64,000 nucleotides of DNA from assembly GCA_009937255.1 (NCBI GenBank), contig JAACCT010000103.1, forward strand, positions 2,763-66,762, read 5' to 3'. The stretch is from Dehalococcoidales bacterium (GTDB lineage Bacteria; Chloroflexota; Dehalococcoidia; Lucifugimonadales; Lucifugimonadaceae). This document shows positions 1 to 25,837 of the stretch, one piece after another. Position numbers and translations under genes: made by a program. The notes under the pieces were generated by a model. The model saw only the letters and a program-made list of their open reading frames with translations. It had not been told where the DNA came from and ran no database searches. How positions within the stretch are numbered: position 1 is the first letter of the stretch; every line of letters starts with the position of its first letter.

Positions 1-2
1 CT

Positions 3-1136
3 TCACATTGGAAATATAAAGACTCTATTGATGAATCTTCTACTGAAAATTTTGGAAAAGACACATATTGGCTTAAGGACATGATAGATTTTGAACAAGA
101 AGGCATAGAGGATAGTGAGTATATTGAATCAGTTAATAACGATATATTGTCAGATAAAGTTATAGTTTATTCACCTAAAAATGAGATATTTACACTGCCG
201 ATAGGATCAACAGCTCTTGATTATGCATATAGCCTTCATACTGATTTAGGGCATTATTGTCAGGCATCTTTTATTAATGGTGTTTGGAAACCATTAAATA
301 CAAAATTAAATAATGGGGATACTGTTCAAATTCAAAAATCAGAAGAAGAAAAAGGACCTAACTTAGATTGGCTAAATGAAAGCTTAGGGTTCATTCGAAC
401 AGCTAATGCAAAAAACAAAGTTAAGGCATGGTTTAAAAAAAGAGAAAGAACTGAAAATATTGAAAGAGGAGAAAAACAAATACTTAGAACTATAGGGCTT
501 TCAAATGTTGAAAATAGTGAGATATTACTACCCACTATGATTGAAAACGATACATATGAAAATTTTGCATACAAGGTCGGAACTGGAGAAATTAATAACC
601 AAAAAATTATAGATATTCTAAATAAAGAACAACTTGAAGAAACTGTTAGAAAAATGAATCTCACTAAAGATCCATTAGAAGAAAACTATAATTCTATTGC
701 TTCAATAGTTATTATGGGAGGAGAAAATATAGATAAAAAAATTGCAAATTGTTGTGGTCCTGTCTATGGGGATGAAATCGTAGGATATAAAAATTCAACT
801 AATGAGATAGTAGTACATAGAATTATGTGCTCACGCTTAAGAAACTTAGAGCATACGAATCGTTTTATGCCTGCAGCTTGGGGTCATTCTAAGGATCTAA
901 CTCCAACTACTGTTTCAATAGAGGCATATGATCGAATGGGGCTAATTAGAGATATAACAGATGTAGTTTGGGGAGAAAAAACTAATATACATTCCATTAA
1001 TTCACAAGAAGACGATAAAAATGGCACATGCAAAATACAATTAACAGTTTATACTAGAGACTTAGGTCAAATAATTAGACTTTTGGGGAAAATGGAAAGT
1101 ACTCCAGGAGTATATAAAGTAAGAAGAGTTAAATAA
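3..1136 (+). CDS. rel: RelA/SpoT-family (p)ppGpp synthetase/hydrolase, C-terminal part; 5' end lies outside the window
   Basis: The frame is open from nt 3 (SHWKYKD, the conserved HWxYK region). It has a TGS-like segment (VYSPKNEIFTLPIGSTALDYAYSLHTDLG) and an ACT-like C-terminus (IEAYDRMGLIRDITDV). Confidence 0.85.
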   Translation, partial: SHWKYKDSIDESSTENFGKDTYWLKDMIDFEQEGIEDSEYIESVNNDILSDKVIVYSPKNEIFTLPIGSTALDYAYSLHTDLGHYCQASFINGVWKPLNTKLNNGDTVQIQKSEEEKGPNLDWLNESLGFIRTANAKNKVKAWFKKRERTENIERGEKQILRTIGLSNVENSEILLPTMIENDTYENFAYKVGTGEINNQKIIDILNKEQLEETVRKMNLTKDPLEENYNSIASIVIMGGENIDKKIANCCGPVYGDEIVGYKNSTNEIVVHRIMCSRLRNLEHTNRFMPAAWGHSKDLTPTTVSIEAYDRMGLIRDITDVVWGEKTNIHSINSQEDDKNGTCKIQLTVYTRDLGQIIRLLGKMESTPGVYKVRRVK

Positions 1137-1148
1137 TTAGGAAAAAAT

Positions 1149-1403
1149 ATGCCAAGTTCTAAATCACACAGAAGTCAATTAAATAAATTTAAAAGTAATT
1201 TATCTATAAAAACTGCTATTAAGTCATCTGTAACCAGCCTAAGAGCTAGCGTTGAAAACAATGATGATTCTGCAGTAACATCTAAGCTTTTCAACAATGT
1301 AGCTAAAATTTTAGATAGAGCTGCAAAAAAAAATGTTATTCATAAAAATAATGCTTCTAGAAGAAAATCAAGACTTCAAAAGCTGATAAATAAATCAAAA
1401 TAG
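1149..1403 (+). CDS. rpsT: 30S ribosomal protein S20
   Basis: 84-aa basic protein; RAAKKNVIHKNNASRRKSRL is typical of S20. Confidence 0.9.
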   Translation: MPSSKSHRSQLNKFKSNLSIKTAIKSSVTSLRASVENNDDSAVTSKLFNNVAKILDRAAKKNVIHKNNASRRKSRLQKLINKSK

Positions 1404-1805
1404 TTGCAAAGTAATTCTATATATAACTGGGAAATTGATCATGGTGATCCAAGTGACAAGTACTCTGAAATAATCATTTCAGTAAAACCAAAATCAGGAT
1501 TACTCTCAAAATGGAGAATAATTCTACCTGCGAACTACAATGGTTTAATCAAATGGGGAATAATTTCTGATGAAGATCAAAAAATTAAAGAACCAAGGGG
1601 TATCTTTGAAACAGGAAGTATAAAACTGAATGATGGACAAGAAGTAATTGTATTTGGAGGAGTCGAACCTGTATCAAAAAATAAATCAGCTCGCCTGATT
1701 GTTAAAAATCCTCCACCTCACTTTATAGGTTTTGGATTTAGTGAAGATGACGCAAGCCCACCTATGAGTATTGAAGGTATAACATTTGAGGACCATCCAC
1801 ATTAA
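1404..1805 (+). CDS. hypothetical protein (133 aa)
   Basis: ORF with a TTG start abutting the rpsT stop (TAG TTG). No motif I recognise. Confidence 0.5.
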   Translation: MQSNSIYNWEIDHGDPSDKYSEIIISVKPKSGLLSKWRIILPANYNGLIKWGIISDEDQKIKEPRGIFETGSIKLNDGQEVIVFGGVEPVSKNKSARLIVKNPPPHFIGFGFSEDDASPPMSIEGITFEDHPH

Positions 1806-1821
1806 TAACAAGACATTTTAT

Positions 1822-1850
1822 TTGACACAAAAAAATATTTATCATACTTT
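1822..1850 (+). promoter_or_regulatory. candidate sigma70-type promoter of lexA (TTGACA - 17 nt - TACTTT)
   Basis: TTGACA at 1822-1827 and TACTTT at 1845-1850. The ATG at 1857 lies about 7 nt after the -10 and no Shine-Dalgarno is visible. Confidence 0.3.
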
Positions 1851-1856
1851 GGTAAT

Positions 1857-2507
1857 ATGACTAATATGAAACCACTTACAGAAAAACAAAAAGACATTCT
1901 AAAATTTATAGAGGCTTATATAGAGGAATATGATTATCCTCCATCGATTAGAGATATTCAAAATAATTGTGATATATCCTCAACTTCAGTTGTTAAATAT
2001 AAGTTAGATAGACTCCAAGAAAAAGGGTTAATGAATAGAGACTCAGAAGTCTCAAGAAGCATCAGTTTAAATACTGAAACAAAAGTAAATTCAATTAGTG
2101 TCCCAGTTTTAGGAACTATAACTGCAGGTCAACCTTTCCCTCTTATAGAAGATGATAGGTGGGATTTAAACGAGATGGATATGATTGACTTGCCTGATAA
2201 TTTTTCATATATTGAAGACAAAATTTTTGCATTAAAAGTTTCTGGATACTCTATGGTTGATGCTTTAATAGGAGATGGAGATACAGTAATTCTTGAAAAA
2301 ACAAATACTGCAAAAAATGGCGATATGGTAGCAGCAAAAATAAATTCAGAAAATGAAACAACTTTAAAAAGAATTTATAAAGAAGGCTCTCAAACTAGAC
2401 TTCAGCCTGAAAACCCTTTGATGGATCCTTTTTTTTATCCTTCTAGTGATATAAGCATTTTAGGTAAGGTAGTGGCAGTTTGGAGATATAATCCCATAAA
2501 TCTCTAA
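1857..2507 (+). CDS. lexA: LexA repressor (S24 peptidase)
   Basis: N-terminal winged HTH, Ala-Gly cleavage site (TITAGQPF), catalytic Ser (SGYSM) and Lys (TLKRIY). Confidence 0.93.
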   Translation: MTNMKPLTEKQKDILKFIEAYIEEYDYPPSIRDIQNNCDISSTSVVKYKLDRLQEKGLMNRDSEVSRSISLNTETKVNSISVPVLGTITAGQPFPLIEDDRWDLNEMDMIDLPDNFSYIEDKIFALKVSGYSMVDALIGDGDTVILEKTNTAKNGDMVAAKINSENETTLKRIYKEGSQTRLQPENPLMDPFFYPSSDISILGKVVAVWRYNPINL

Positions 2508-2571
2508 TTTAGAGACTTAAGCCTTATGAAATAGATCTATAATTTAATTAAAATATTTTAACTAGAAAATT

Positions 2572-3264
2572 ATGGATCTGCTACTAATAAATAAACTTAA
2601 TAGATACATGAGGATTAATCTAAACAGAACAGGCTTTTTACCCGAAGAAACCTCATTGATGAAAAAACTTGATCTCAATCCAAAACAATTTGATGAATTA
2701 ATTATTGATGCTCAAGAATATGGGATGGATATAAAACCAGAAATATTTGAACTTAAAACTTACTGCAAGCTAAATCAAGATGATATGCAGTATGGAACTG
2801 ATACTAAATTAAAATTTGGGTATAAAGATTTTCTGAAATATAAGAGGCTATTAGATGAAAAAATGCCTATACTAGATTTTAGTAATGATGATCTTACAGA
2901 AGATTTACTTGAGGTGGCTGGAACAATTTTAAATTTTCTAGAACTACTTATAGCTAATATTACCTCTAAAGCTTTACTTTCTGATAATTCAAATGATCAA
3001 ATTGAATATGATTATGAGAAAGTTATGACTATATATGGAAAACAAAAGGTTATTTTAAGTAATGATCAACTAGAGATAAGTATTGATAAGTTTTTAGAAC
3101 CTTTTATTACTTTATTTATGAAAGTTGGAGTAGTATTTGAAGCCTATGATGTACTAACTGAAGAATTTTATAATGAAAATGAAATCATCAAAGAATATAG
3201 TTGCTTAGATTTTAAAGAAATAGAAAGCTTTTTGAAGTTATATGAAGATGGTCAATTAAACTAA
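2572..3264 (+). CDS. hypothetical acidic protein (230 aa)
   Basis: Long ORF downstream of lexA. Asp/Glu-rich with no recognisable domain or TM segment. Confidence 0.6.
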   Translation: MDLLLINKLNRYMRINLNRTGFLPEETSLMKKLDLNPKQFDELIIDAQEYGMDIKPEIFELKTYCKLNQDDMQYGTDTKLKFGYKDFLKYKRLLDEKMPILDFSNDDLTEDLLEVAGTILNFLELLIANITSKALLSDNSNDQIEYDYEKVMTIYGKQKVILSNDQLEISIDKFLEPFITLFMKVGVVFEAYDVLTEEFYNENEIIKEYSCLDFKEIESFLKLYEDGQLN

Positions 3265-3335
3265 ATAATAAATTATTACCAAGATCTCCTAATAGACAAG
3301 TTGATAAAAACTTAATTATCTCGTAATTAATACGC

Positions 3336-3365
3336 TTGACTTAATTAGAACACTTGTTCTAATAT
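3336..3365 (+). promoter_or_regulatory. near-consensus promoter (TTGACT - 18 nt - TAATAT)
   Basis: TTGACT at 3336-3341 and TAATAT at 3360-3365, followed by AAGGAG (3383-3388) and the ATG at 3394. Confidence 0.55.
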
Positions 3366-3378
3366 GAACATATGTTCT
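3347..3378. promoter_or_regulatory. two tandem LexA operators (GAAC-N4-GTTC SOS boxes)
   Basis: AGAACACTTGTTCT at 3347-3360 and TGAACATATGTTCT at 3365-3378. Both are perfect palindromic Gram-positive-type SOS boxes overlapping the spacer, the -10 and the +1 region. Confidence 0.75.
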
Positions 3379-3393
3379 AATTAAGGAGTATTT

Positions 3394-3912
3394 ATGATTA
3401 CAAAATTTTCAGAGACTATTTTTGATAAAACAAAGGGATCTAACCTAAACGATAATAATTTAATAAGATCTATAGCTTCAAATATAATAAACAAAAATAA
3501 ATGTGAATATGAAATAGGTATAGAGTGTTTTTATTGTTGGCATGATGTAATGAATGATTTACGAATTTGGACCCTTGTTAAGGGCAAACAGGAAGATGCT
3601 GTTTCTGCAGTATTTAGTTCTTCTATAATTGAATGTTTATATCCAGGTGTGTTGAAAATGATAAATAAAATCAATGAATTTAAGAACTTTAATTTTCTTT
3701 TTTCTAAAAATCATAATGAAGTTTCCTATGATAATTCTAAATACATATTTTCTAATCAGATAAATGATAAGCCAAAATTTTTATTACTTGAAAATATAGG
3801 TATAGAAGAAGAATATGCAAAAAAAACTGATGCCTTAGTTAAGCTAAATATTATTAAAAATAAATATTCTCAGCAATATTTTTATATTTCTGAGAATTGT
3901 ACTCACCTATAA
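3394..3912 (+). CDS. hypothetical protein (172 aa) with a C-x7-C-x2-C-x-H motif; putatively LexA-regulated
   Basis: Good RBS (AAGGAG 5 nt upstream of the ATG). CEYEIGIECFYCWH cluster, no TM segment, no recognisable family. Confidence 0.7.
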   Translation: MITKFSETIFDKTKGSNLNDNNLIRSIASNIINKNKCEYEIGIECFYCWHDVMNDLRIWTLVKGKQEDAVSAVFSSSIIECLYPGVLKMINKINEFKNFNFLFSKNHNEVSYDNSKYIFSNQINDKPKFLLLENIGIEEEYAKKTDALVKLNIIKNKYSQQYFYISENCTHL

Positions 3913-3923
3913 GGAGAAAAAAT

Positions 3924-4262
3924 ATGACAATGATTGAAGATAATGCCTTTTCAAATAAAGAAGTTATTTATGATGATGGATGCGAGTACTCTAATAGTTG
4001 CTTAAGTTGCCCTTTACCTCTTTGTAAATATGATGATCCTATATTAGATAACTCTAAATCTAAAATTAATAGAAATACTCTAATATTTAGTATGAAAAAA
4101 ACAAATTTGAGTAATAAAAAAATTGCTACAATACTTAAAATTTCTACCAGAACTGTTAATAGGGTTCTTACAAAAGAAAATACAGAGAAGCAAAAATTTG
4201 TATTAGAATTAAGGAACCAAAGTATAATAAAAAGTTCACAATTAGTTTCTATGCAGAACTAG
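3924..4262 (+). CDS. hypothetical Cys4 + helix-turn-helix protein (112 aa from ATG 3924)
   Basis: AAGGAG at 3911-3916 precedes the ATG at 3924 (the track start at 3897 overlaps the upstream ORF). GCEYSNSCLSCPLPLC cluster followed by the HTH LSNKKIATILKISTRTVNRVL. Confidence 0.7.
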   Translation: MTMIEDNAFSNKEVIYDDGCEYSNSCLSCPLPLCKYDDPILDNSKSKINRNTLIFSMKKTNLSNKKIATILKISTRTVNRVLTKENTEKQKFVLELRNQSIIKSSQLVSMQN

Positions 4263-4389
4263 TTTATATATTTAGAGGAGAGTAAATACCTCTCTCTTTC
4301 CTCTACTACCCCTCAAACATAAAATGGCTTAAAGAGTGACTTAGCATTCTCTAAGGCATTTTGTGGTTTAATGGGAATTTTATATATTA

Positions 4390-5037
4390 TTAATTCCCTA
4401 CTAAAAACATAGACCTCTCTGCAATATTTATAGATCTATCTGTAATTCTTTCTAAATTATGAGCAACCCATAGTAAGTATGTTGCACGCTCTATTTCTGC
4501 AGGTTTTTTCTTCATTAGTTCAATTAATGCAGATCGCACATCCTTGCTTAAATCGCCAATTTTTTTATGGTCTGACTTGAGCTGTTTATATCTAGATTTA
4601 ACATCCTCTGGATTCTTTATTAAAAAAGTTTCTGTACTTAACCTAAGCATTTCTATAGATTTAATACTCATTTGAGGAATAATTACTAAGTCTGTTGGCA
4701 GAGGTATTATTCCAATTCTTTTTGTTAATATAGCTATACCTTCGGCATAGTCTCCTATACGCTCTAGTTCTTCAATAACGTACATACAAGAAACTATTTC
4801 TCTTAGATCTCCAGCTAAGGGGGCTTGTCTTCTAATTAAATTGATACATAAGACTTCAAGTTCAGCACCCATATCATCTATTATGTCATCGCCTGCAATA
4901 ACTTTATCCGCAAGATCCATATCTTGCTCAAGAAGTGAATGTATAGATTTTTCTATGGAGTTTTCAACATGTGAAGCCATCAACTTAATTTCTATTTCAA
5001 GTTTTTCTAATTCACTAGAAAATTCTTTTCTTACCAT
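4390..5037 (-). CDS. phoU: phosphate signalling protein PhoU
   Basis: Two PhoU repeats (ERIGDYAEGIA and ERITDRSINIAE). It sits directly downstream of pstB. Confidence 0.9.
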   Translation of the reverse strand: MVRKEFSSELEKLEIEIKLMASHVENSIEKSIHSLLEQDMDLADKVIAGDDIIDDMGAELEVLCINLIRRQAPLAGDLREIVSCMYVIEELERIGDYAEGIAILTKRIGIIPLPTDLVIIPQMSIKSIEMLRLSTETFLIKNPEDVKSRYKQLKSDHKKIGDLSKDVRSALIELMKKKPAEIERATYLLWVAHNLERITDRSINIAERSMFLVGN

Positions 5038-5039
5038 TA

Positions 5040-5840
5040 TTATCCTATCCTTCCTGTAACATAATCTTCTGTTCTTTTATCCTTTGGATTTCCAAAAACA
5101 GAATCATTGGTACCGTATTCTATGAGCTCTCCAATTCTTTCTTGCCCTGCCATCATTACAGCAGCATAATCACAAATTCTAGTTGCTTGTTGCATATTAT
5201 GAGTTACTATAATTATTGTTACATTTTTAGAAAGATTTTGAATTAACTCTTCTAGCTTTGAGGTTGATACAGGATCTAAAGCCGATGCGGGTTCATCCAT
5301 TAATATTATGTCAGGATTAACTGCCAATGCTCTTGCTATACACAATCTTTGTTGTTGCCCTCCAGAAAGATCTAGCCCGTTATCATTTAATCTGTCTTTT
5401 ACTTCATCCCAAAGAGCAGATTTTTTTAAAGAGTTAAAAACTATTTCTTCAATATCTTTTTTAGGGAAACCATTGATTTTTGGCCCAAAAGCTACATTCT
5501 CAAAAATAGTTTTAGGAAAAGGGTTAGGTTTTTGAAAAACCATACCAATTTTAAATCTAATATCAGTTGGATCTGCTTGGTCAGAATAAATAGAATTTCC
5601 ATTATACTCAACTAAACCAGATACCTTTGCTGATGGTATTAAATCATTCATCCTATTAAAGCATCTTATTAAGGTACTTTTTCCACATCCTGAAGGGCCT
5701 ATAAGTGCAATTATTTTATTTCTAGGAACACTAAATGTAACATTGCTTACTGCCTTTGTTTGGCCATAAAAAACACTCAAGTCAACTGTATTAAGGATTA
5801 CTTGCTTAGAATCTATTTGATCTATTAAATTATTTGACAT
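5040..5840 (-). CDS. pstB: phosphate ABC transporter ATP-binding protein PstB
   Basis: Walker [10 protein letters not shown], signature LSGGQQQRL, Walker B ILMDEP, and a PstB-like C-terminus ([10 protein letters not shown]). Confidence 0.92.
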
Positions 5841-5920
5841 ATTTTGAAGTTTTATTTCTTTTTATATATATTAACATATGATAATTTATTAATGTTAAAC
5901 AAATATTAATTGATCTAAAA

Positions 5921-7009
5921 ATGAACGATATTTATAATTTTTCTAAGTTAGAAATCCACTCACTTTTAGAGAAAAATAATTTTCCTACTTATAGAACATC
6001 TCAAATCTGGAGATATCTATATAAAAATCAAGTAAAAAAATTTGATGAAATGACTAATATTTCTTCAGATTTAATTTCATTTTTGGCGCTTAATTTTTAT
6101 ATAGGAAGCTTAGTTGAGATTAATAATATTATTTCTAAAGATAAATCAACTTATAAAAGTCTATTTAAGTTGCCTGATGGAAAAGTAATTGAAACAGTAT
6201 TAATGAATTATCCTTCAGATAATCATAGAAAACCTAGAAAAACAATTTGTATTTCTAGCCAAGTCGGATGTGCCTTAGGGTGCACTTTTTGTGCAACTGG
6301 TCAGCAAGGATTTACTAGACAATTAACGTCCGGTGAAATTATTTCTCAAGTTATGTATTATAAAAATTTAGAAAAAGAAGGATTTTTTGATTCAAAATTA
6401 AAAAATCCAGAAAAATCTTATAAAGGTGTAAAAAATATAGTTTTTATGGGTATGGGCGAGCCCTTAGCAAATTATGATAATACAATTAAGGCTATAAAAT
6501 CTTTAAATGATGACCTAGGTATTAATTTTGGAGCAAGAAATATTACTATCTCTACAGTAGGCTTGGTCCCTCAAATTTTAAAACTTGCAGATGAAGAAAT
6601 TCAAATTAATTTAGCTGTATCTATTCATGCTCCAGACAATAAAACCAGGACAGAGACAGTTCCAATAAATAAAAGATATCCTATTGAAATGCTGATTGAT
6701 GCTTGTAAAAAATATATTGAAAAAACTAACAGAAAAATTTTCTTTGAATATGTTTTATTAGAGGGACAGAATGATTCACCTGAACATGCAAAAAAGTTAG
6801 GTCTATTACTCGAAAATATGTTATGTCATGTAAATTTAATTCCAGTTAATCCTACAATTGATTCTGAATATAAAAGATCTAACAAAGATGTAATTTTAGA
6901 TTTTCAAAGAATTTTGAAAAAATTTAGAGTTCCTTCAACATTGAGAATGGAAAAAGGAATTGAAGTTAGTGCTGGGTGTGGACAGTTAGCTAATACAAAT
7001 AATTATTAG
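5921..7009 (+). CDS. rlmN: 23S rRNA/tRNA adenine-C2 methyltransferase RlmN (radical SAM)
   Basis: CALGCTFCATG radical-SAM motif, MGMGEPL, and C-terminal GCGQL. Confidence 0.9.
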   Translation: MNDIYNFSKLEIHSLLEKNNFPTYRTSQIWRYLYKNQVKKFDEMTNISSDLISFLALNFYIGSLVEINNIISKDKSTYKSLFKLPDGKVIETVLMNYPSDNHRKPRKTICISSQVGCALGCTFCATGQQGFTRQLTSGEIISQVMYYKNLEKEGFFDSKLKNPEKSYKGVKNIVFMGMGEPLANYDNTIKAIKSLNDDLGINFGARNITISTVGLVPQILKLADEEIQINLAVSIHAPDNKTRTETVPINKRYPIEMLIDACKKYIEKTNRKIFFEYVLLEGQNDSPEHAKKLGLLLENMLCHVNLIPVNPTIDSEYKRSNKDVILDFQRILKKFRVPSTLRMEKGIEVSAGCGQLANTNNY

Positions 7010-9918
7010 CTATCAACTGCTTCAGCTAATACTTGAATGAGATATTTAGGATTTTTATTCGAAAGATCTTTAATCTGATCATGACATGAAATTCCTGTAA
7101 CTATAATTTCTTGATTTTTTTCTGAATTATTTATAGCAGGTATAAGTCTATCACTTGCCATTTTTTTTGAAATATCATAGTGTTCTTTTTCCATTCCAAA
7201 TGAACCAGCCATACCACAGCATCCAGCATCAATAAGCTTGGCTTGGAATTTATCAGGTAAATTTAAGGATTCTAATGAATTATTAGTACCATCTAGTGCT
7301 CTTTCATGGCAGTGCACAAAAAGTAATAAATCTTTAGTTAAAGATTTCCATTTTATTTGTTGCCCTCCATCGTTTTTTATCTGAACTAATAAATCTTGTA
7401 TTGTAAAAGTATTTTCAGCAATTAATTTAGCATGAGTTCTATTATCTGCAAGATCTGGAAATTCATCTTGCATAGCAGATACACAACTAGACTCAACTCC
7501 TACAATTTTTATACCCTTTTCTACATATTTGTATAAAAGGTCAGTGTTATAGTCTACATTTTTTTTAGCTTGATCTAATAAGCCTTTGGAAATCATTGTT
7601 CTTCCGCAACATTTTCTATCAGCTATTTCCACTTCATATCCTGCAGCTTCCAATACTTTTACTGCAGATTTACCTACTTCTGGATGAATATAGTTAATAT
7701 GAGTGTCATGGAAAAAAAGTATTTTTCCTCTAGATTTTGATGAATTAATATTTCTTTTTTTAAACCAAGATTCAAAAGTATAGGTACTAATATTAGGCAT
7801 TTTTCTTTTTCTATCAATTCCAATTATTTTTTCAGTAATAATTTTAGAGAAAGGAAGTTTATTAGCTAAATTAAATAAATTTGCTTGAGGCCCAGATATT
7901 AACTTATATAATTTAGGGACACTACCAACTAGTTTGGATCTTAATGGGACTTTATTCTTTTTGTAATAGTTATTTAAGAATTCATATTTTATTTTTGCCA
8001 TATCTACATTTGCAGGACATTCTGATTTACAAGATTTACATTCTATGCACAGATCCAATACTTCAAGCATTTTTTTATTTGTTAGAAATTCTTCATTAAG
8101 AGATCCAGACAAAACACCTCTTAGAGCATTAGCTCTACCTCTTGTAGAGTGTACTTCTTCACGTGTAGCCATGTAAGAAGGGCACATTGCTCCTGCATTT
8201 AGTTTTCTACAAGCACCTACTCCAATACATTTTTCAACAGCACCTTCAAAACCTCCTTCGACAGAGAAATCAAGAACTGTGTCAATTTTTTTTAATTTAT
8301 AAGCTGTTCCATACCGTAAATTATCTCCCATTTTAGGAGTATCAAAAATTTTACCTGGATTCATTATAGTTTCTGGATCAAATGCACTTTTTAATTCTCT
8401 AAAAGAATCAATTATCTTTGGCCCATACATTTTTTCAGACCAAGCACCTCTAACAATTCCATCACCGTGTTCACCACTTAATGAACCATCAAATTCTTTT
8501 ACTAAATCTGATATTTCATCAGATATTTTTATCATTCTTTCAATGCCTTCATTATTCTTTAAATTAATTGTAGGCCTAATGTGAAGACATCCTTCTGCGG
8601 CATGACCGTAGTAACCGGCTTCAGTACCATTAGCTCTAACTATTTCATCAAATCTTTTTACATATTCAGGTAATTTTTCTGGAGAGACTGCAGTATCTTC
8701 AACAAAAGGAATAGGTTTTTTATCTCCTGGAATATTCATCATTAATCCCAAACCTGCTTGACGCATAGCCCAAACCTTAGATTGTTGAATAGGATCAAAG
8801 ATTTTTGTTATCGCATATGTAAGATTTAATCTTTTCATCTTATTAGATAATTTTTCTATTTTATCTTTTACATCATTAGGAGAATTACCATTCATTTCAA
8901 CTACTAAAATATCAGTAGGATCCCCTTGTAAAAAATCAAGATTTCTAGCAAACCCTAGAGATTGTTTAGCTTGAGTAATAATCATATTCCCAATATGTTC
9001 TACAGCAGCAGGACCTTCTTCTAAGGTGGCGACAGTGGCTTCCATTGATTCTATTAAGTCTTTAAAGTGTAAAATTGCTAAACCTATAAATTCAGGAATT
9101 GGCTCTAAATTTAACTTCGCTTTTGTTACAGCAGCTAAAGTTCCCTCAGAACCAACCATCATATTTACAAGGTTTATCTTGTTAGAATTTGGACGAAATA
9201 AATCTAAATTATATCCACCAACTCTTCTATTAACTTTTGAGTATTTATTATTGATTTCATCATAATATTTTGAAGATAAGCTCATTACATCTCTATAAAT
9301 TTTACCTTCAAGATTAGAAAGAGAAATTTTATCTTCAAGAACTTTTCCTGAAATTTCTTCAAAATAAGCTTTAGAACTATCAGATAGAATAACTTCCATT
9401 TCTCTTACATGATCAACTGTTTTTCCATAAATTATGGAATGAGCTCCACAAGAATTATTTCCCATAGCTCCTCCTACATTTGCCCTAGATTTTGTAGATG
9501 GATCTGGAGTGAAGTGAAGATTTAGATGCTTAAGTTTTTGGTTTAAGTTATCTATAGTTATTCCAGGCTGTGTTATTACATATTTTTCTTCAGGATTTAT
9601 TTCTATAACATTATTCATGTATTTTGAGAAATCTATAATTACTGCAGAATTAACAGTTTGACCAGAGAGACTTGTGCCACCTCCACGTGGCAAAATTGCT
9701 GTGTTACTTTTATTACATATATCTATAATTGCAATAACATCATCAGCATTTTTAGGGAGAGTTACTCCTATTGGAGTCATACTGTATATTGATCCGTCTG
9801 TGCTATACATTTGACGATAAATATCATCAAATTTTACTTCACCTTGAATACTTTTTTTAAGCTCGTTTTCTAAATCAGATTTGATTAGATTATTAGATTT
9901 TTCTTTGGTAGAGGTCAT
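7006..9918 (-). CDS. FAD-linked oxidase fused to a Fe-S/CCG oxidoreductase domain (YdiJ/GlcD-GlcF-like 2-hydroxyacid dehydrogenase)
   Basis: PRGGGTSLSGQ FAD-binding domain, CIECKSCKSECP 4Fe-4S motif, and two CCG motifs (CCGRTM, CCGMAGSFG). Confidence 0.85.
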   Translation of the reverse strand: MTSTKEKSNNLIKSDLENELKKSIQGEVKFDDIYRQMYSTDGSIYSMTPIGVTLPKNADDVIAIIDICNKSNTAILPRGGGTSLSGQTVNSAVIIDFSKYMNNVIEINPEEKYVITQPGITIDNLNQKLKHLNLHFTPDPSTKSRANVGGAMGNNSCGAHSIIYGKTVDHVREMEVILSDSSKAYFEEISGKVLEDKISLSNLEGKIYRDVMSLSSKYYDEINNKYSKVNRRVGGYNLDLFRPNSNKINLVNMMVGSEGTLAAVTKAKLNLEPIPEFIGLAILHFKDLIESMEATVATLEEGPAAVEHIGNMIITQAKQSLGFARNLDFLQGDPTDILVVEMNGNSPNDVKDKIEKLSNKMKRLNLTYAITKIFDPIQQSKVWAMRQAGLGLMMNIPGDKKPIPFVEDTAVSPEKLPEYVKRFDEIVRANGTEAGYYGHAAEGCLHIRPTINLKNNEGIERMIKISDEISDLVKEFDGSLSGEHGDGIVRGAWSEKMYGPKIIDSFRELKSAFDPETIMNPGKIFDTPKMGDNLRYGTAYKLKKIDTVLDFSVEGGFEGAVEKCIGVGACRKLNAGAMCPSYMATREEVHSTRGRANALRGVLSGSLNEEFLTNKKMLEVLDLCIECKSCKSECPANVDMAKIKYEFLNNYYKKNKVPLRSKLVGSVPKLYKLISGPQANLFNLANKLPFSKIITEKIIGIDRKRKMPNISTYTFESWFKKRNINSSKSRGKILFFHDTHINYIHPEVGKSAVKVLEAAGYEVEIADRKCCGRTMISKGLLDQAKKNVDYNTDLLYKYVEKGIKIVGVESSCVSAMQDEFPDLADNRTHAKLIAENTFTIQDLLVQIKNDGGQQIKWKSLTKDLLLFVHCHERALDGTNNSLESLNLPDKFQAKLIDAGCCGMAGSFGMEKEHYDISKKMASDRLIPAINNSEKNQEIIVTGISCHDQIKDLSNKNPKYLIQVLAEAVDS

Positions 9919-24731: not shown

Positions 24732-25778
24732 CTATCCTAGAGCTTCTGAATTATCAAGCTCGTCAGGTATTTCAGTTTCTATTGGGTTCATTATTAGATC
24801 TTCAATTTTTTGTGAAATTTGAGGATTATTTTTAAGAAATTTTCTCACAGATTCTCTTCCTTGACCTAGTCTTTCTCCTTCAAATGAATAAAATGACCCA
24901 CTTTTTTCTACTATGTTCTTATCTACTCCAATATCAAGTAGTTCTCCTTCCTTGGAGATTCCTTCATTATAAAGTATTTCTATTTCAGATTTCTTAAACG
25001 GTGCAGCTACTTTATTTTTAACAACTCTAACTCTAACTTTGTTTCCAACTAATTCTTCACCGATTTTTATCGACTCAGATCTTCTTAGATCTATTCTAAC
25101 TGAGCTGTAAAATTTTAATGCTCTACCACCCGGAGTTACTTCTGGGGAACCAAAAATCACACCAACTTTTTCTCTTAATTGGTTTATAAATACGCAAGTA
25201 GTGTTTGTTTTATGAACAGTTGCTGTTAATTTTCTTAATGCTTGTGACATTAATCTAGCTTGTGCTCCAACATGGTAGTCACCCATTTCTCCTTCTAGTT
25301 CTGATCTAGGAACCAATGCTGCAACCGAGTCAACCACTATTATATCCAATGCTCCAGAGCTTACTAAATGATCAGTTATTTCTAATGCTTCTTCAGCTGA
25401 ATTTGGCTGAGATATTAATAATTCTTGGTTGTTAACACCGATTTTTTTTGCATAACCTGGATCCATAGCATGCTCTACATCTATATAAGCTGCTTGGCCA
25501 CCTTTTTTTTGTGCTTGAGCTAAACATGATAGAGCCAAAGTACTTTTTCCAGCACTTTCTGCTCCAAAGATTTCTACTATTCTACCTCTAGGAAGACCGC
25601 CTATGCCTAATGCTATATCTAGACCTATTGATCCTGTAGGAATAAATTGAATGTTAGCATCAATTTCGGAAGATTCACTCATTCGCATGACTGCACCTTT
25701 TCCATAATTTTTCTCTATTTGCTCAATAGTTAAATCTAATGTTCCATTTTCAATTTTATTATTTTTTTTTCTTGCCAC
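24732..25778 (-). CDS. recA: recombinase RecA
   Basis: GTG start; Walker [10 protein letters not shown]; VVDSVAAL; [11 protein letters not shown]. Confidence 0.97.
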
Positions 25779-25807: not shown

Positions 25808-25837
25808 AATATAGCACAAATGTTCTAAACTATGCAA
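25808..25837 (-). promoter_or_regulatory. candidate recA promoter (TTGCAT - 18 nt - TATATT)
   Basis: Read on the minus strand, TTGCAT is at 25837-25832 and TATATT at 25813-25808. GGAG RBS upstream of the GTG. Confidence 0.45.
25813..25826 (-). promoter_or_regulatory. LexA box with one mismatch (AGAACATTTGTGCT) in the recA promoter spacer
   Basis: The minus-strand sequence has a perfect left half-site AGAAC. The right half is GTGCT, against GTTCT in the consensus. Confidence 0.55.

Follow-up and report, generated by a model that had tools for sequence, protein, structure and literature searches.

A putative LexA-repressed gene pair of Dehalococcoidia with probable ancestry in a phage-like packaging module

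The window analysed here, a stretch of 64,000 nucleotides of Dehalococcoidales DNA, contains a cassette of two genes, ORF1 and ORF2, that is probably a LexA-repressed bicistronic operon, vertically conserved in the Dehalococcoidia and derived by domestication from a LexA-controlled phage-like packaging module. Both genes form a single operon (ORF1 at 3394-3912, ORF2 at 3924-4262) behind a sigma-70-type promoter. The relevant features are the following.

1857..2507, + strand: lexA, encoding the presumed trans-acting repressor (PF01726, E 3e-19; PF00717, E 3.5e-25)
3323..3331, + strand: conserved GTAATTAAT block directly 5' of the -35 hexamer, a candidate UP-like element or extra site
3336..3341, + strand: -35 hexamer TTGACT from the promoter scan; the class-wide form is TTGAC(T/A/C)
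3348..3359, + strand: LexA box 1, GAACACTTGTTC, an exact Cheo-box match in the -35/-10 spacer
3360..3365, + strand: -10 hexamer TAATAT from the promoter scan; relatives have GATAAT or TAATAT there
3366..3377, + strand: LexA box 2, GAACATATGTTC, an exact match immediately 3' of the -10 hexamer, over the likely transcription start
3383..3388, + strand: ribosome-binding site AAGGAG of ORF1, read from the sequence and conserved
3394..3912, + strand: ORF1, 172 aa, a predicted reduced, non-catalytic derivative of the phage TerL ATPase domain (NCBIfam NF052413 / FESNov NOV1T2S5)
3911..3916, + strand: ribosome-binding site AAGGAG of ORF2, read from the sequence, overlapping the ORF1 stop codon
3924..4262, + strand: ORF2, 112 aa, with a Cys4 motif, then a predicted three-helix HTH and a long C-terminal helix
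4277..4295, + strand: weak terminator-like hairpin from the terminator scan, between ORF2 and the convergent phoU
25813..25826, - strand: one-mismatch LexA box AGAACATTTGTGCT (letters of the - strand), 35 nt upstream of recA

The ORF coordinates and features given in an earlier, sequence-only reading of this DNA agree with ours. The same applies to its choice of the ATG at 3924, behind AAGGAG and 11 nt past the ORF1 stop, as the start of ORF2, which matches the MTMI... N-terminus of every homologue. An Rfam search of window positions 1-9000 gave no family match.

The palindrome GAAC-N4-GTTC corresponds to the canonical LexA box of the Gram-positive type, the Cheo box (PMC2248561), and its perfect form occurs only twice in the window, both times at the cassette promoter, where the two copies flank the -10 hexamer. 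By chance 0.40 perfect boxes are expected in the window, and at least two were found anywhere in 6 of 100 shuffles; we regard the cassette boxes as real because they are conserved and not because of their number. The 65-nt promoter/operator block is near-invariant in nine lineages with dS > 1, i.e. with saturated synonymous sites. Box 2 is unchanged in nine lineages and so is the block directly 5' of the -35 hexamer in nine low-GC SAR202 lineages, while the sequence farther upstream is unalignable; box 1 is kept in all low-GC relatives and in the B-type Dehalococcoidia loci. Furthermore, the arrangement of -35, box, -10 and box recurs in distant Dehalococcoidia, including SAR202, and 63 of 85 loci have a perfect box no more than 150 nt from the operon start, compared to 0.021 per kb elsewhere. 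Promoter and operators were kept far beyond neutral expectation, and the pairing of the boxes implies tight repression.

The LexA encoded in the window is intact with regard to its Ala-Gly cleavage site (ITAGQP), Ser (GYSM) and Lys (TLKR), i.e. the genome possesses a cleavable LexA. The LexA protein of Dehalococcoides reportedly binds the GAAC-N4-GTTC motif. The recA gene (24732-25778, - strand) carries its box in a TTGCAT-N5-box-TATATT layout, and the finding of a box close to consensus, placed as in the cassette promoter, at this canonical SOS gene provides independent support that the motif is the SOS operator of this bacterium. The SOS gating proposed in the sequence-only reading is hence a well-founded prediction, backed by two promoter-overlapping operators with deep phylogenetic footprints and by the equivalent layout at recA. 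With two perfect boxes the cassette has stronger sites than recA with its single one-mismatch box. Main-text literature searches for a described LexA regulon of Dehalococcoidia returned nothing relevant.

The palindrome could in principle be the site of another factor than LexA. It could serve as operator for ORF2 or another element-encoded regulator, which would turn the cassette into an autoregulated relic without a link to DNA damage. Such autoregulation would fit the occurrence of the same palindrome 5' of several operons in phage-like elements encoding ORF2 homologues, and also the upstream region of lexA itself, in which the motif scan recognised no LexA box, an unusual situation for an SOS system. 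However, the motif is the canonical LexA box, and recA, a universal SOS gene, has it at the same promoter position in the window. Moreover, a site between -35 and -10 indicates repression, yet the closest, albeit weak, matches of the ORF2 HTH are phage activators. We therefore consider autoregulation very unlikely.

In Gram-positive-type bacteria, lineage-specific LexA-repressed operons are found by lexA, such as yneA-yneB-ynzC of B. subtilis or the genes for ChiZ, DivS and SosA. The cassette resembles the yneA-type operons, since it is small, poorly conserved-looking, under a Cheo-box promoter and near lexA in the window genome. It differs from them by products that are not membrane division inhibitors, an unconserved lexA linkage, its class-wide occurrence and its probable phage origin. 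The previous assumption that it sits directly beside lexA, like the YneA and ChiZ genes, had to be given up: a 230-aa ORF (2572-3264) separates lexA from the cassette, which is on the same strand, and linkage to lexA is found only in the closest clade, with one to two genes in between. Relatives at 65-70% identity, like the remainder of the class, have carotenoid, YceI or cinA genes next to the cassette and not lexA. The proximity to lexA is incidental. On the other side, the stated contrast to the small membrane proteins of the YneA type was correct, as neither ORF gave membrane or LysM-type matches.

By analogy to SulA, YneA or SidA, the cassette might nevertheless act as an SOS checkpoint or toxin-like module that arrests division or replication, or as an SOS-induced toxin-antitoxin pair. 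A lineage-specific small operon under strong LexA repression would be suited for such a task, and no homologue of SulA or YneA was noticed in the window. But neither protein is of the small membrane or LysM type, a SulA-like match is missing, toxin or antitoxin family matches are absent beyond the HTH, and toxin-antitoxin loci lack class-wide synteny, which altogether makes this function quite improbable. As specific candidates, we rejected the toxin-antitoxin pair, given the lack of family matches beyond the HTH and the atypical class-wide synteny, and the YneA-type division inhibitor, given the lack of a SulA fold, membrane or LysM features and the location on the strand of lexA with a gene between.

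The cassette has a fixed position on the chromosome (phoU-pstB / rlmN side), is vertically inherited class-wide, and was retained even in streamlined genomes of about 1.4 Mb. For Ca. Lucifugimonas marina JH545 (NZ_CP046146.1), converting the coordinates of locus L023 places the pair at roughly 2,636,260-2,637,490 on the complement strand. The dN/dS values are 0.12 for ORF1 and 0.13 for ORF2 in comparison with the relative L090, and 0.105 and 0.106, respectively, in comparison with L093. ORF1 and ORF2 are co-inherited and under purifying selection with dN/dS about 0.1, and decaying junk was rejected in view of these values and the class-wide synteny. The comparison that had been proposed for the two-gene unit, i.e. 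co-occurrence, upstream boxes and dN/dS, shows that pair and LexA boxes are both kept in relatives.

The sequence-only reading stated that neither ORF resembles any family, which does not apply to ORF1. Its product is a full-length member of NCBIfam NF052413.1 (E 1.5e-91; 304.7 bits, with the cut-off at 200; residues 1-171 of 171), and it is linked to the TerL-derived family B described below. NF052413.1 is named "NOV1T2S5, terpene biosynthesis-related", and supplementary file 7 of FESNov places NOV1T2S5 in 84 predicted "terpene" regions (PMC10849945). Main-text literature searches for NOV1T2S5 gave nothing relevant; it is listed only in the FESNov supplement. Taken literally, the name would make ORF1 an accessory of terpene or carotenoid biosynthesis, and in the loci L001-L010 crt genes are indeed found upstream of the cassette. 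They are, however, on the opposite strand, often with a YceI/YHYH gene in between, and no crt genes occur beside the cassette in the window, its closest relatives (L090-L095) or the B-type loci. The constant partners of ORF1 are ORF2 and the LexA boxes, and the label rests on co-location alone. ORF1 differs from the implied role also in regulation and in its predicted TerL ancestry. A terpene accessory role is contradicted by the genomic context and appears extremely unlikely.

The ancestry of ORF1 became accessible through family B, which we define as proteins of 210-280 aa that are always encoded directly 5' of ORF2 homologues. ORF1 and family B share this gene position, and they match each other reciprocally in hmmsearch (P 4e-7; 2e-9 to 8e-5 across the ORF1 family). 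The hhalign score of 34.2 compares with a mean of 12.5 (sd 2.3, maximum 21) for shuffled controls, corresponding to z of about 9, and the alignment is collinear across residues 12-170. ORF1 can thus be assigned to family B as a very diverged, further-shortened member, although the link is remote. When the ORF1 family was searched by HMM against the whole library, the same narrow clade and fragments were recovered only and not family B, and ORF1 had no match in Pfam or PHROG.

Family B, in turn, aligns with TerL-like proteins of Dehalococcoidia (hhalign probability 98.9% with E 1.1e-17 across 178 columns; blastp E as low as 5e-19), one of which matches real phage terminases with E 8e-40 (94% coverage) and 4e-30. 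A tblastn search with family B against phage terminases gave no direct match, and the link passes only through the Dehalococcoidia TerL-like intermediates. Neither the family B plus TerL profile nor that of the TerL-like proteins yielded anything useful in PDB sequence searches. Judged from these profile comparisons, family B and the ATPase domain of phage TerL are homologous, and the homology of ORF1 to this domain is transitive, i.e. from ORF1 via family B and the TerL-like proteins to phage TerL.

In the alignment with phage TerL, e.g. that of Bacillus phage vB_BboS-125 / BCD7, family B, and via it ORF1, is collinear with the N-terminal ASCE ATPase domain. The shared parts include the strand preceding Walker A, the helix that follows this motif and the Walker B strand (LLE...); the motif III region is shared by family B only. 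Family B has lost Walker A, Walker B and the nuclease domain. The Walker A motif RQ(A/G)GKNE is variable in family B and, aligned as RQAGKNE, replaced by ECFYCWH in ORF1, where the Walker B motif DEAQ became NIGIE. Unlike TerL, ORF1 stops before motif III, has no RNase H-like nuclease domain and lacks neighbouring portal and TerS genes; portal and capsid genes are absent from the entire 64-kb window. Also unlike a phage terL gene, ORF1 would be a chromosomal, vertically inherited and SOS-regulated host gene. The former statement that no phage gene is nearby needs revision, as ORF1 itself is the probable terminase remnant.

The Cys/His residues noticed earlier in ORF1 (C37-x7-C45-x2-C48-x-H50) are all present, but C37 is not conserved, whereas C45, C48, H50, C81, C169 and H171 are invariant in eight full-length homologues. 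In the alignment, C45-x2-C48-x-H50 occupies the former P-loop position. The sequence-only reading recommended homology searches, structure prediction and Foldseek for both proteins. Profiles provided the family assignment and the TerL homology, while the structural part was less productive: the AlphaFold model of ORF1 (pLDDT 33) is unusable, and ORF2 gave generic HTH matches only.

ORF2 carries the motif C20-x5-C26-x2-C29-x4-C34 (CLxCPLxLCKYDDP), followed by a predicted HTH at about residues 58-82 (about 45-80 for the three-helix HTH). The description as an HTH protein with a Cys4 motif is supported, and all four Cys are invariant in the homologue alignments. All 287 matches of the family come from Chloroflexota, as do the genome loci (74/74), and ORF2 can be classified as a member of a Chloroflexota-wide Cys4 plus HTH family. 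ORF2 itself reaches none of the Pfam cut-offs (20.9 bits for GerE versus 23.5), but relatives carry HTH_23 (PF13384; 28.0 versus a cut-off of 24.6 for the homologue at L070), and the family profile matches the DNA-binding domain of gamma-delta resolvase with E 0.003. In the structure model (pLDDT 61) the three-helix HTH unit alone is confident, while the Cys4 region is of low confidence. Foldseek against PDB and BFVD returned only generic HTH matches with E 0.1 or worse and no structural match for the Cys4 region; the top viral match, Mor, was not significant (E 0.1). No relatives of ORF2 were found in IMG/VR or among GenBank phages. Stand-alone homologues of ORF2 exist at three loci (L058, L068, L075), hence ORF2 can function in the absence of a partner derived from TerL.

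The features of ORF2 could also point to an Fe-S protein of the Wbl/FNR kind, i.e. a transcription factor that senses the redox state and forms a second tier of SOS regulation, with ORF1 as accessory partner. The four invariant Cys within 15 residues adjoining an HTH would be compatible with this assumption, as would the resemblance of the HTH to sigma region 4, LuxR, Mor and phage "late transcriptional activator" domains and the solid SOS gating. However, the x5/x2/x4 spacing is unlike the C-xn-C-x2-C-x5-C of Wbl, the Pfam scan gave no match of Wbl or FNR models to ORF2, and the G[VI]WGG turn is absent from the ORF2 alignments. For such a compact Cys4 knuckle, Zn is no less likely than Fe-S, and we regard the Fe-S regulator as unlikely.

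The probable origin of the gene pair is illustrated by phage-like head-gene clusters, in which the genes for TerL, the Cys4-HTH protein, portal and major head protein (capsid) follow each other, i.e. the ORF2-family gene is flanked by those for TerL and portal. LexA-box promoters like that of the cassette are present in these clusters, several of them in late operons. The homologues of ORF2 in phage context have their best, though weak, profile match in the "late transcriptional activator" phrog_836 (E 1e-6). The Mor/C late-gene activators of Mu (PHROG 836/532) are likewise small proteins in phage context with a C-terminal HTH similar to that of ORF2, but they lack its N-terminal Cys4 motif, and the window ORF2 is below every family threshold. 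The domesticated mobile element, which the sequence-only reading had named as an alternative, thereby gains ground: the pair appears to descend from a phage TerL / Cys4-HTH gene pair.

Direct repression by the host LexA occurs in temperate elements such as CTXphi and the Bacillus phage GIL01, and gene-transfer-agent or tailocin clusters can be SOS-linked. The phage-like relatives, with LexA boxes in several late-operon promoters, are similar to CTXphi and GIL01, and the cassette seems to retain such a promoter. Unlike these elements, it keeps two genes only, with neither structural genes nor an integrase.

For the presumably domesticated operon we propose that DNA damage would lead to RecA-stimulated self-cleavage of LexA and thereby to de-repression. 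ORF1 and ORF2 may then act jointly as a non-catalytic complex resembling a terminase holoenzyme; we infer their interaction only from co-inheritance and ancestry. ORF2 would supply sequence-specific DNA binding via its HTH, with a Cys4 metal site that stabilises or modulates it, and ORF1 would be its structural partner. As its output, the pair would most likely control either other genes or a DNA transaction in the course of the SOS response. Beyond this, it is conceivable, and we suggest it tentatively, that a terminase ATPase domain stripped of catalysis and a Cys4-HTH protein from the same module were exapted as an ancient, core and class-wide SOS effector complex of Dehalococcoidia, acting on host DNA or transcription after damage, and that the P-loop was rebuilt as a Cys/His, possibly metal-binding, site in marine low-GC SAR202.

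The same ancestry would permit an interference with phages, in analogy to the packaging-interference proteins encoded by satellites: on the SOS signal, which induces prophages as well, the cell would make a dead TerL ATPase-domain decoy and a DNA binder similar to TerS or late regulators, and these could poison the packaging of related phages or their late transcription. A phage packaging module is the probable source of both genes, the LexA-box promoters are shared with related phage-like elements, which would be co-induced, and the loss of the Walker motifs suits a dominant-negative subunit. However, PADLOC models gave only generic HTH-level noise, the cassette is fixed and vertical across the class, whereas defence genes are usually patchy and mobile, and selection is strongly purifying and not diversifying. 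This function is therefore rather doubtful.

The dark ocean and sediments count SAR202 and other Dehalococcoidia among their most abundant bacteria. To our knowledge, almost nothing is known about their stress responses. The class-wide conservation, together with the presence of the only two perfect LexA boxes of the window, makes the cassette probably a central and wholly uncharacterised component of the SOS response in Dehalococcoidia. If the exaptation assumed above is true, it would represent an SOS output without a characterised counterpart. The database name "terpene biosynthesis-related", which rests on neighbourhood only, can be corrected. Moreover, the proposed series from the full phage-like cluster via TerL plus HTH and a Walker-less ATPase domain plus HTH to the 172-aa relic plus HTH, with a LexA-controlled promoter retained at every stage, offers a testable model of how phage packaging proteins may gain host functions. 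The cassette is present in the cultured Ca. Lucifugimonas marina JH545, in which these predictions are directly testable.

ORF1 and ORF2 lie on the plus strand, 11 nt apart, and form an operon whose promoter carries two exact GAAC-N4-GTTC palindromes, the only exact matches to this motif in the 64 kb window.

Features of the cassette and of the SOS genes in the window (coordinates, strand where assigned, feature)
1857-2507, lexA, both Pfam domains; self-cleavage Ala-Gly, Ser and Lys residues readable in the sequence
3336-3341, plus, -35 element TTGACT, 5' of ORF1
3348-3359, exact GAAC-N4-GTTC palindrome (box 1), in the -35/-10 spacer
3360-3365, plus, -10 element TAATAT
3366-3377, exact GAAC-N4-GTTC palindrome (box 2), immediately 3' of the -10
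3394-3912, plus, ORF1, 172 aa, AAGGAG 5'
3924-4262, plus, ORF2, 112 aa, AAGGAG 5'
4277-4295, weak hairpin, 3' of ORF2
24732-25778, minus, recA (PF00154, E 5e-126)

Past the hairpin, phoU is encoded on the opposite strand, convergent with the cassette. No Rfam family was matched within window positions 1-9000. TAATTA occurs three times around the operators, and nine lineages share, without change, a GTAATTAAT block (3323-3331) 5' of the -35.

The GAAC-N4-GTTC motif is reportedly bound by Dehalococcoides LexA. Upstream of recA, by 35 nt, a box with one mismatch, GAACATTTGTGC (25813-25826), is located between TTGCAT (-35) and TATATT (-10), and since it is placed likewise at this promoter, the motif can be taken as the SOS operator in this genome. 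In Gram-positive-type LexA systems it is called the Cheo box (PMC2248561). The SOS gating proposed in the sequence-only reading is supported by operators over the promoter and a recA box in the same layout. The recA box has GTGC in its right half-site, a variant also present in phage-like elements. The region upstream of lexA (1806-1856) contains a TTGACA promoter and no LexA box with up to two mismatches to AGAACN4GTTCT; lexA may lack autoregulation, or transcripts from rpsT and a 133-aa ORF may read through into it, the ORF lying on its other flank (1404-1805; no match in Pfam or NCBIfam). A single 230-aa ORF (2572-3264), without match in Pfam, NCBIfam, PHROGs or PADLOC, separates lexA from the cassette. 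Both ORFs are conserved together with lexA in three related loci (L090, L093, L095).

The close homologues of ORF2 (n=16) and ORF1 (n=13) are exclusively from marine SAR202/Chloroflexota metagenomes. In ORF2, C20, C26, C29, C34 and the following CKYDD are invariant; in ORF1, C45, C48, H50, C81, C169 and H171 are conserved and C37 is not. Both genes are under purifying selection, with dN/dS values of 0.12 (ORF1) and 0.13 (ORF2) in comparison with a relative of 96-97% identity and of 0.105 and 0.106 with one of 90-94%. The promoter block GTAATTAAT...TTGACTTAATTAGAACAC(T/C)TGTTCTAA(T/A)ATGAACATATGTTCTAATTAAGGAG is essentially invariant across nine lineages in which synonymous sites are saturated (dS >1), and the sequence 5' of it is unalignable in the same lineages. 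The cassette is real and conserved, and is predicted to be SOS-gated.

The comparison with division inhibitors encoded next to lexA found no support, because lexA is linked only in the closest relatives, upstream of the cassette with one or two genes intervening. Relatives of 65-70% identity have the pair flanked by carotenoid or YceI/YHYH genes on one side and phoU-pstB / rlmN on the other, with no lexA near it, and in the closest relatives extra genes are inserted on either side (in L093 at 4033-5376 and 6630-7781). The cassette is intact although both its flanks accept insertions; the constant unit is the promoter with ORF1 and ORF2, and the lexA linkage is incidental. The close relatives L093, L094 and L095 carry an inserted YHYH-domain gene after the 230-aa ORF, ahead of the cassette; L093 and L094 also have a mandelate-racemase-like gene that separates the cassette from phoU, a point at which L095 is cut off. 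In another locus (L003, 9094-11867), short ORFs replace a 970-aa FAD-oxidase/Fe-S gene downstream of rlmN, either by disruption or through an assembly problem.

A profile search with the ORF2 family retrieved 287 proteins, every one from Chloroflexota, which share LPEN..Y.D.GC-x5-CLxCPLxLCKYDDP followed by an HTH (IS.RTVHR). Scanning species-representative genomes for CPLxLCKYD, a pattern outside which CRYD variants fall, gave 74 loci from Dehalococcoidia, SAR202 or Chloroflexota only, with the cultured Ca. Lucifugimonas marina JH545 among the carriers; records titled Dehalococcoides mccartyi contributed none. GCA_017114025.1 (L011), labelled as that species, holds a B-type cassette whose protein has CRYD, and its label may be doubtful. 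The ORF2 structure model is confident only in the HTH, which resembles resolvase, GerE, sigma region 4 and Mor-type domains at non-significant scores; the Cys4 region had no match among solved structures or models. Stand-alone ORF2 homologues have two one-mismatch LexA boxes upstream.

Directly 5' of the ORF2 homologue, almost all genome-scan loci encode a protein of 210-280 aa (family B) without Pfam, PHROG or NCBIfam match. Of 85 loci, 63 have one or two perfect LexA boxes at its start, compared with 15 boxes in 704 kb elsewhere, and its promoter, cTTGACTTAATTA-GAACAnnTGTTC-GATAATA-GAACAnnnGTTC, equals that of the window in design. The recurrent order is cinA <- -> B-ORF2 ... <- phoU <- pstB -> rlmN. 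In L011 a further perfect box (4035-4046) lies 47 nt upstream of the divergent cinA, which is probably SOS-regulated in that lineage. One lineage (L014/L015, 5556-8923) has the B-ORF2 pair followed by the DNA-processing genes DEAD/ResIII helicase and DprA.

In four genomes (L070, L071, L074, L076) the gene in this position encodes a divergent large terminase (TerL) of 464-468 aa (PHROG 38, E 8e-8; Terminase_6C, E 2e-4), which in tblastn matches Bacillus phages vB_BboS-125 (E 8e-40, 94% coverage) and BCD7 (E 4e-30) as well as Streptomyces phage terminases. Family B aligns with its ATPase domain (residues 18-198; hhalign probability 98.9%, E 1.1e-17; blastp E down to 5e-19). The TerL-like proteins retain the Walker A RQAGKNE and Walker B LLEGDEAQ of the phage. 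Family B has lost both motifs and also has no nuclease domain. Judged by these alignments, family B is a terminase remnant.

ORF1 occupies the position of the family B gene. The family B HMM matches 10 of 10 ORF1-family sequences (P 2e-9 to 8e-5; window ORF1 4e-7), and the reverse search also gives matches. The hhalign score is 34.2, compared with 12.5 +/- 2.3 (maximum 21) in 100 column shuffles, and residues 12-170 align collinearly, with the invariant C45-x2-C48-x-H50 exactly at the former P-loop site; ORF1 ends before TerL motif III. A whole-library search did not recover the link, and the ORF1 structure model failed. ORF1 is quite likely a reduced, remotely linked member of family B.

ORF1 also matches NCBIfam NF052413.1, 'NOV1T2S5 family terpene biosynthesis-related protein' (E 1.5e-91). 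The NOV1T2S5 family belongs to the FESNov set, whose supplement enters it only as present in 84 predicted 'terpene' regions (PMC10849945), one of which is the contig of locus L010. The name thus mirrors the carotenoid genes upstream in some lineages; it stems from co-location, and a terpene role is unsupported in the window. Six stretches of a 2742-aa protein (P0141) match ORF1 profile positions 110-148 (E 4.5e-14), probably a low-complexity, AT-rich artefact.

In L070 the gene order is TerL, Cys4-HTH, SPP1-type portal (PF05133, E 7e-20); scanning metagenomes for this TerL brought up more than 546 relatives. L098 encodes a membrane protein, a 126-aa basic protein, TerL, Cys4-HTH, portal, major head protein (phrog_212, E 6e-72) and tail/structural proteins.

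Phage-like head-gene clusters (locus, coordinates)
L098, 2468-12486
L101, 6570-12996
L148, 5075-5110

Their promoters, TTGACA-N5/6-GAACnnnnGT(T/G)C-TAnnAT, are repeated 5' of the TerL operon, the Cys4-HTH gene and the capsid genes; boxes in several late-operon promoters suggest direct repression by host LexA. It follows that both LexA-type control and the order TerL then Cys4-HTH are older than the truncation. The 'domesticated element' alternative of the sequence-only reading thereby gains support from the TerL/Cys4-HTH ancestry. Furthermore, a full-length TerL preceded by a basic/coiled-coil protein of 110-127 aa (L160, 7588-9359, on a 613-kb contig) is widespread in sediment metagenomes (many of L097-L176); no Cys4-HTH, portal or capsid gene was detectable near such pairs, which may represent satellites or additional cases of terminase domestication.

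LexA would repress the operon until DNA damage lifts the repression. The TerL ATPase domain is the part contacted by small-terminase/DNA-recognition partners. Because precisely this domain and the adjoining Cys4-HTH gene were co-retained, the two products may act together, with ORF2 as the putative DNA-binding partner. The cassette could not be placed among defence systems, toxin-antitoxin pairs, division inhibitors or Wbl proteins, and the earlier suggestion of an Fe-S sensor in ORF2 found no support. The cassette has no characterised counterpart and belongs with lineage-specific LexA-controlled genes and exapted phage genes; regulation, DNA handling and phage interference are candidate cellular roles of the putative complex.
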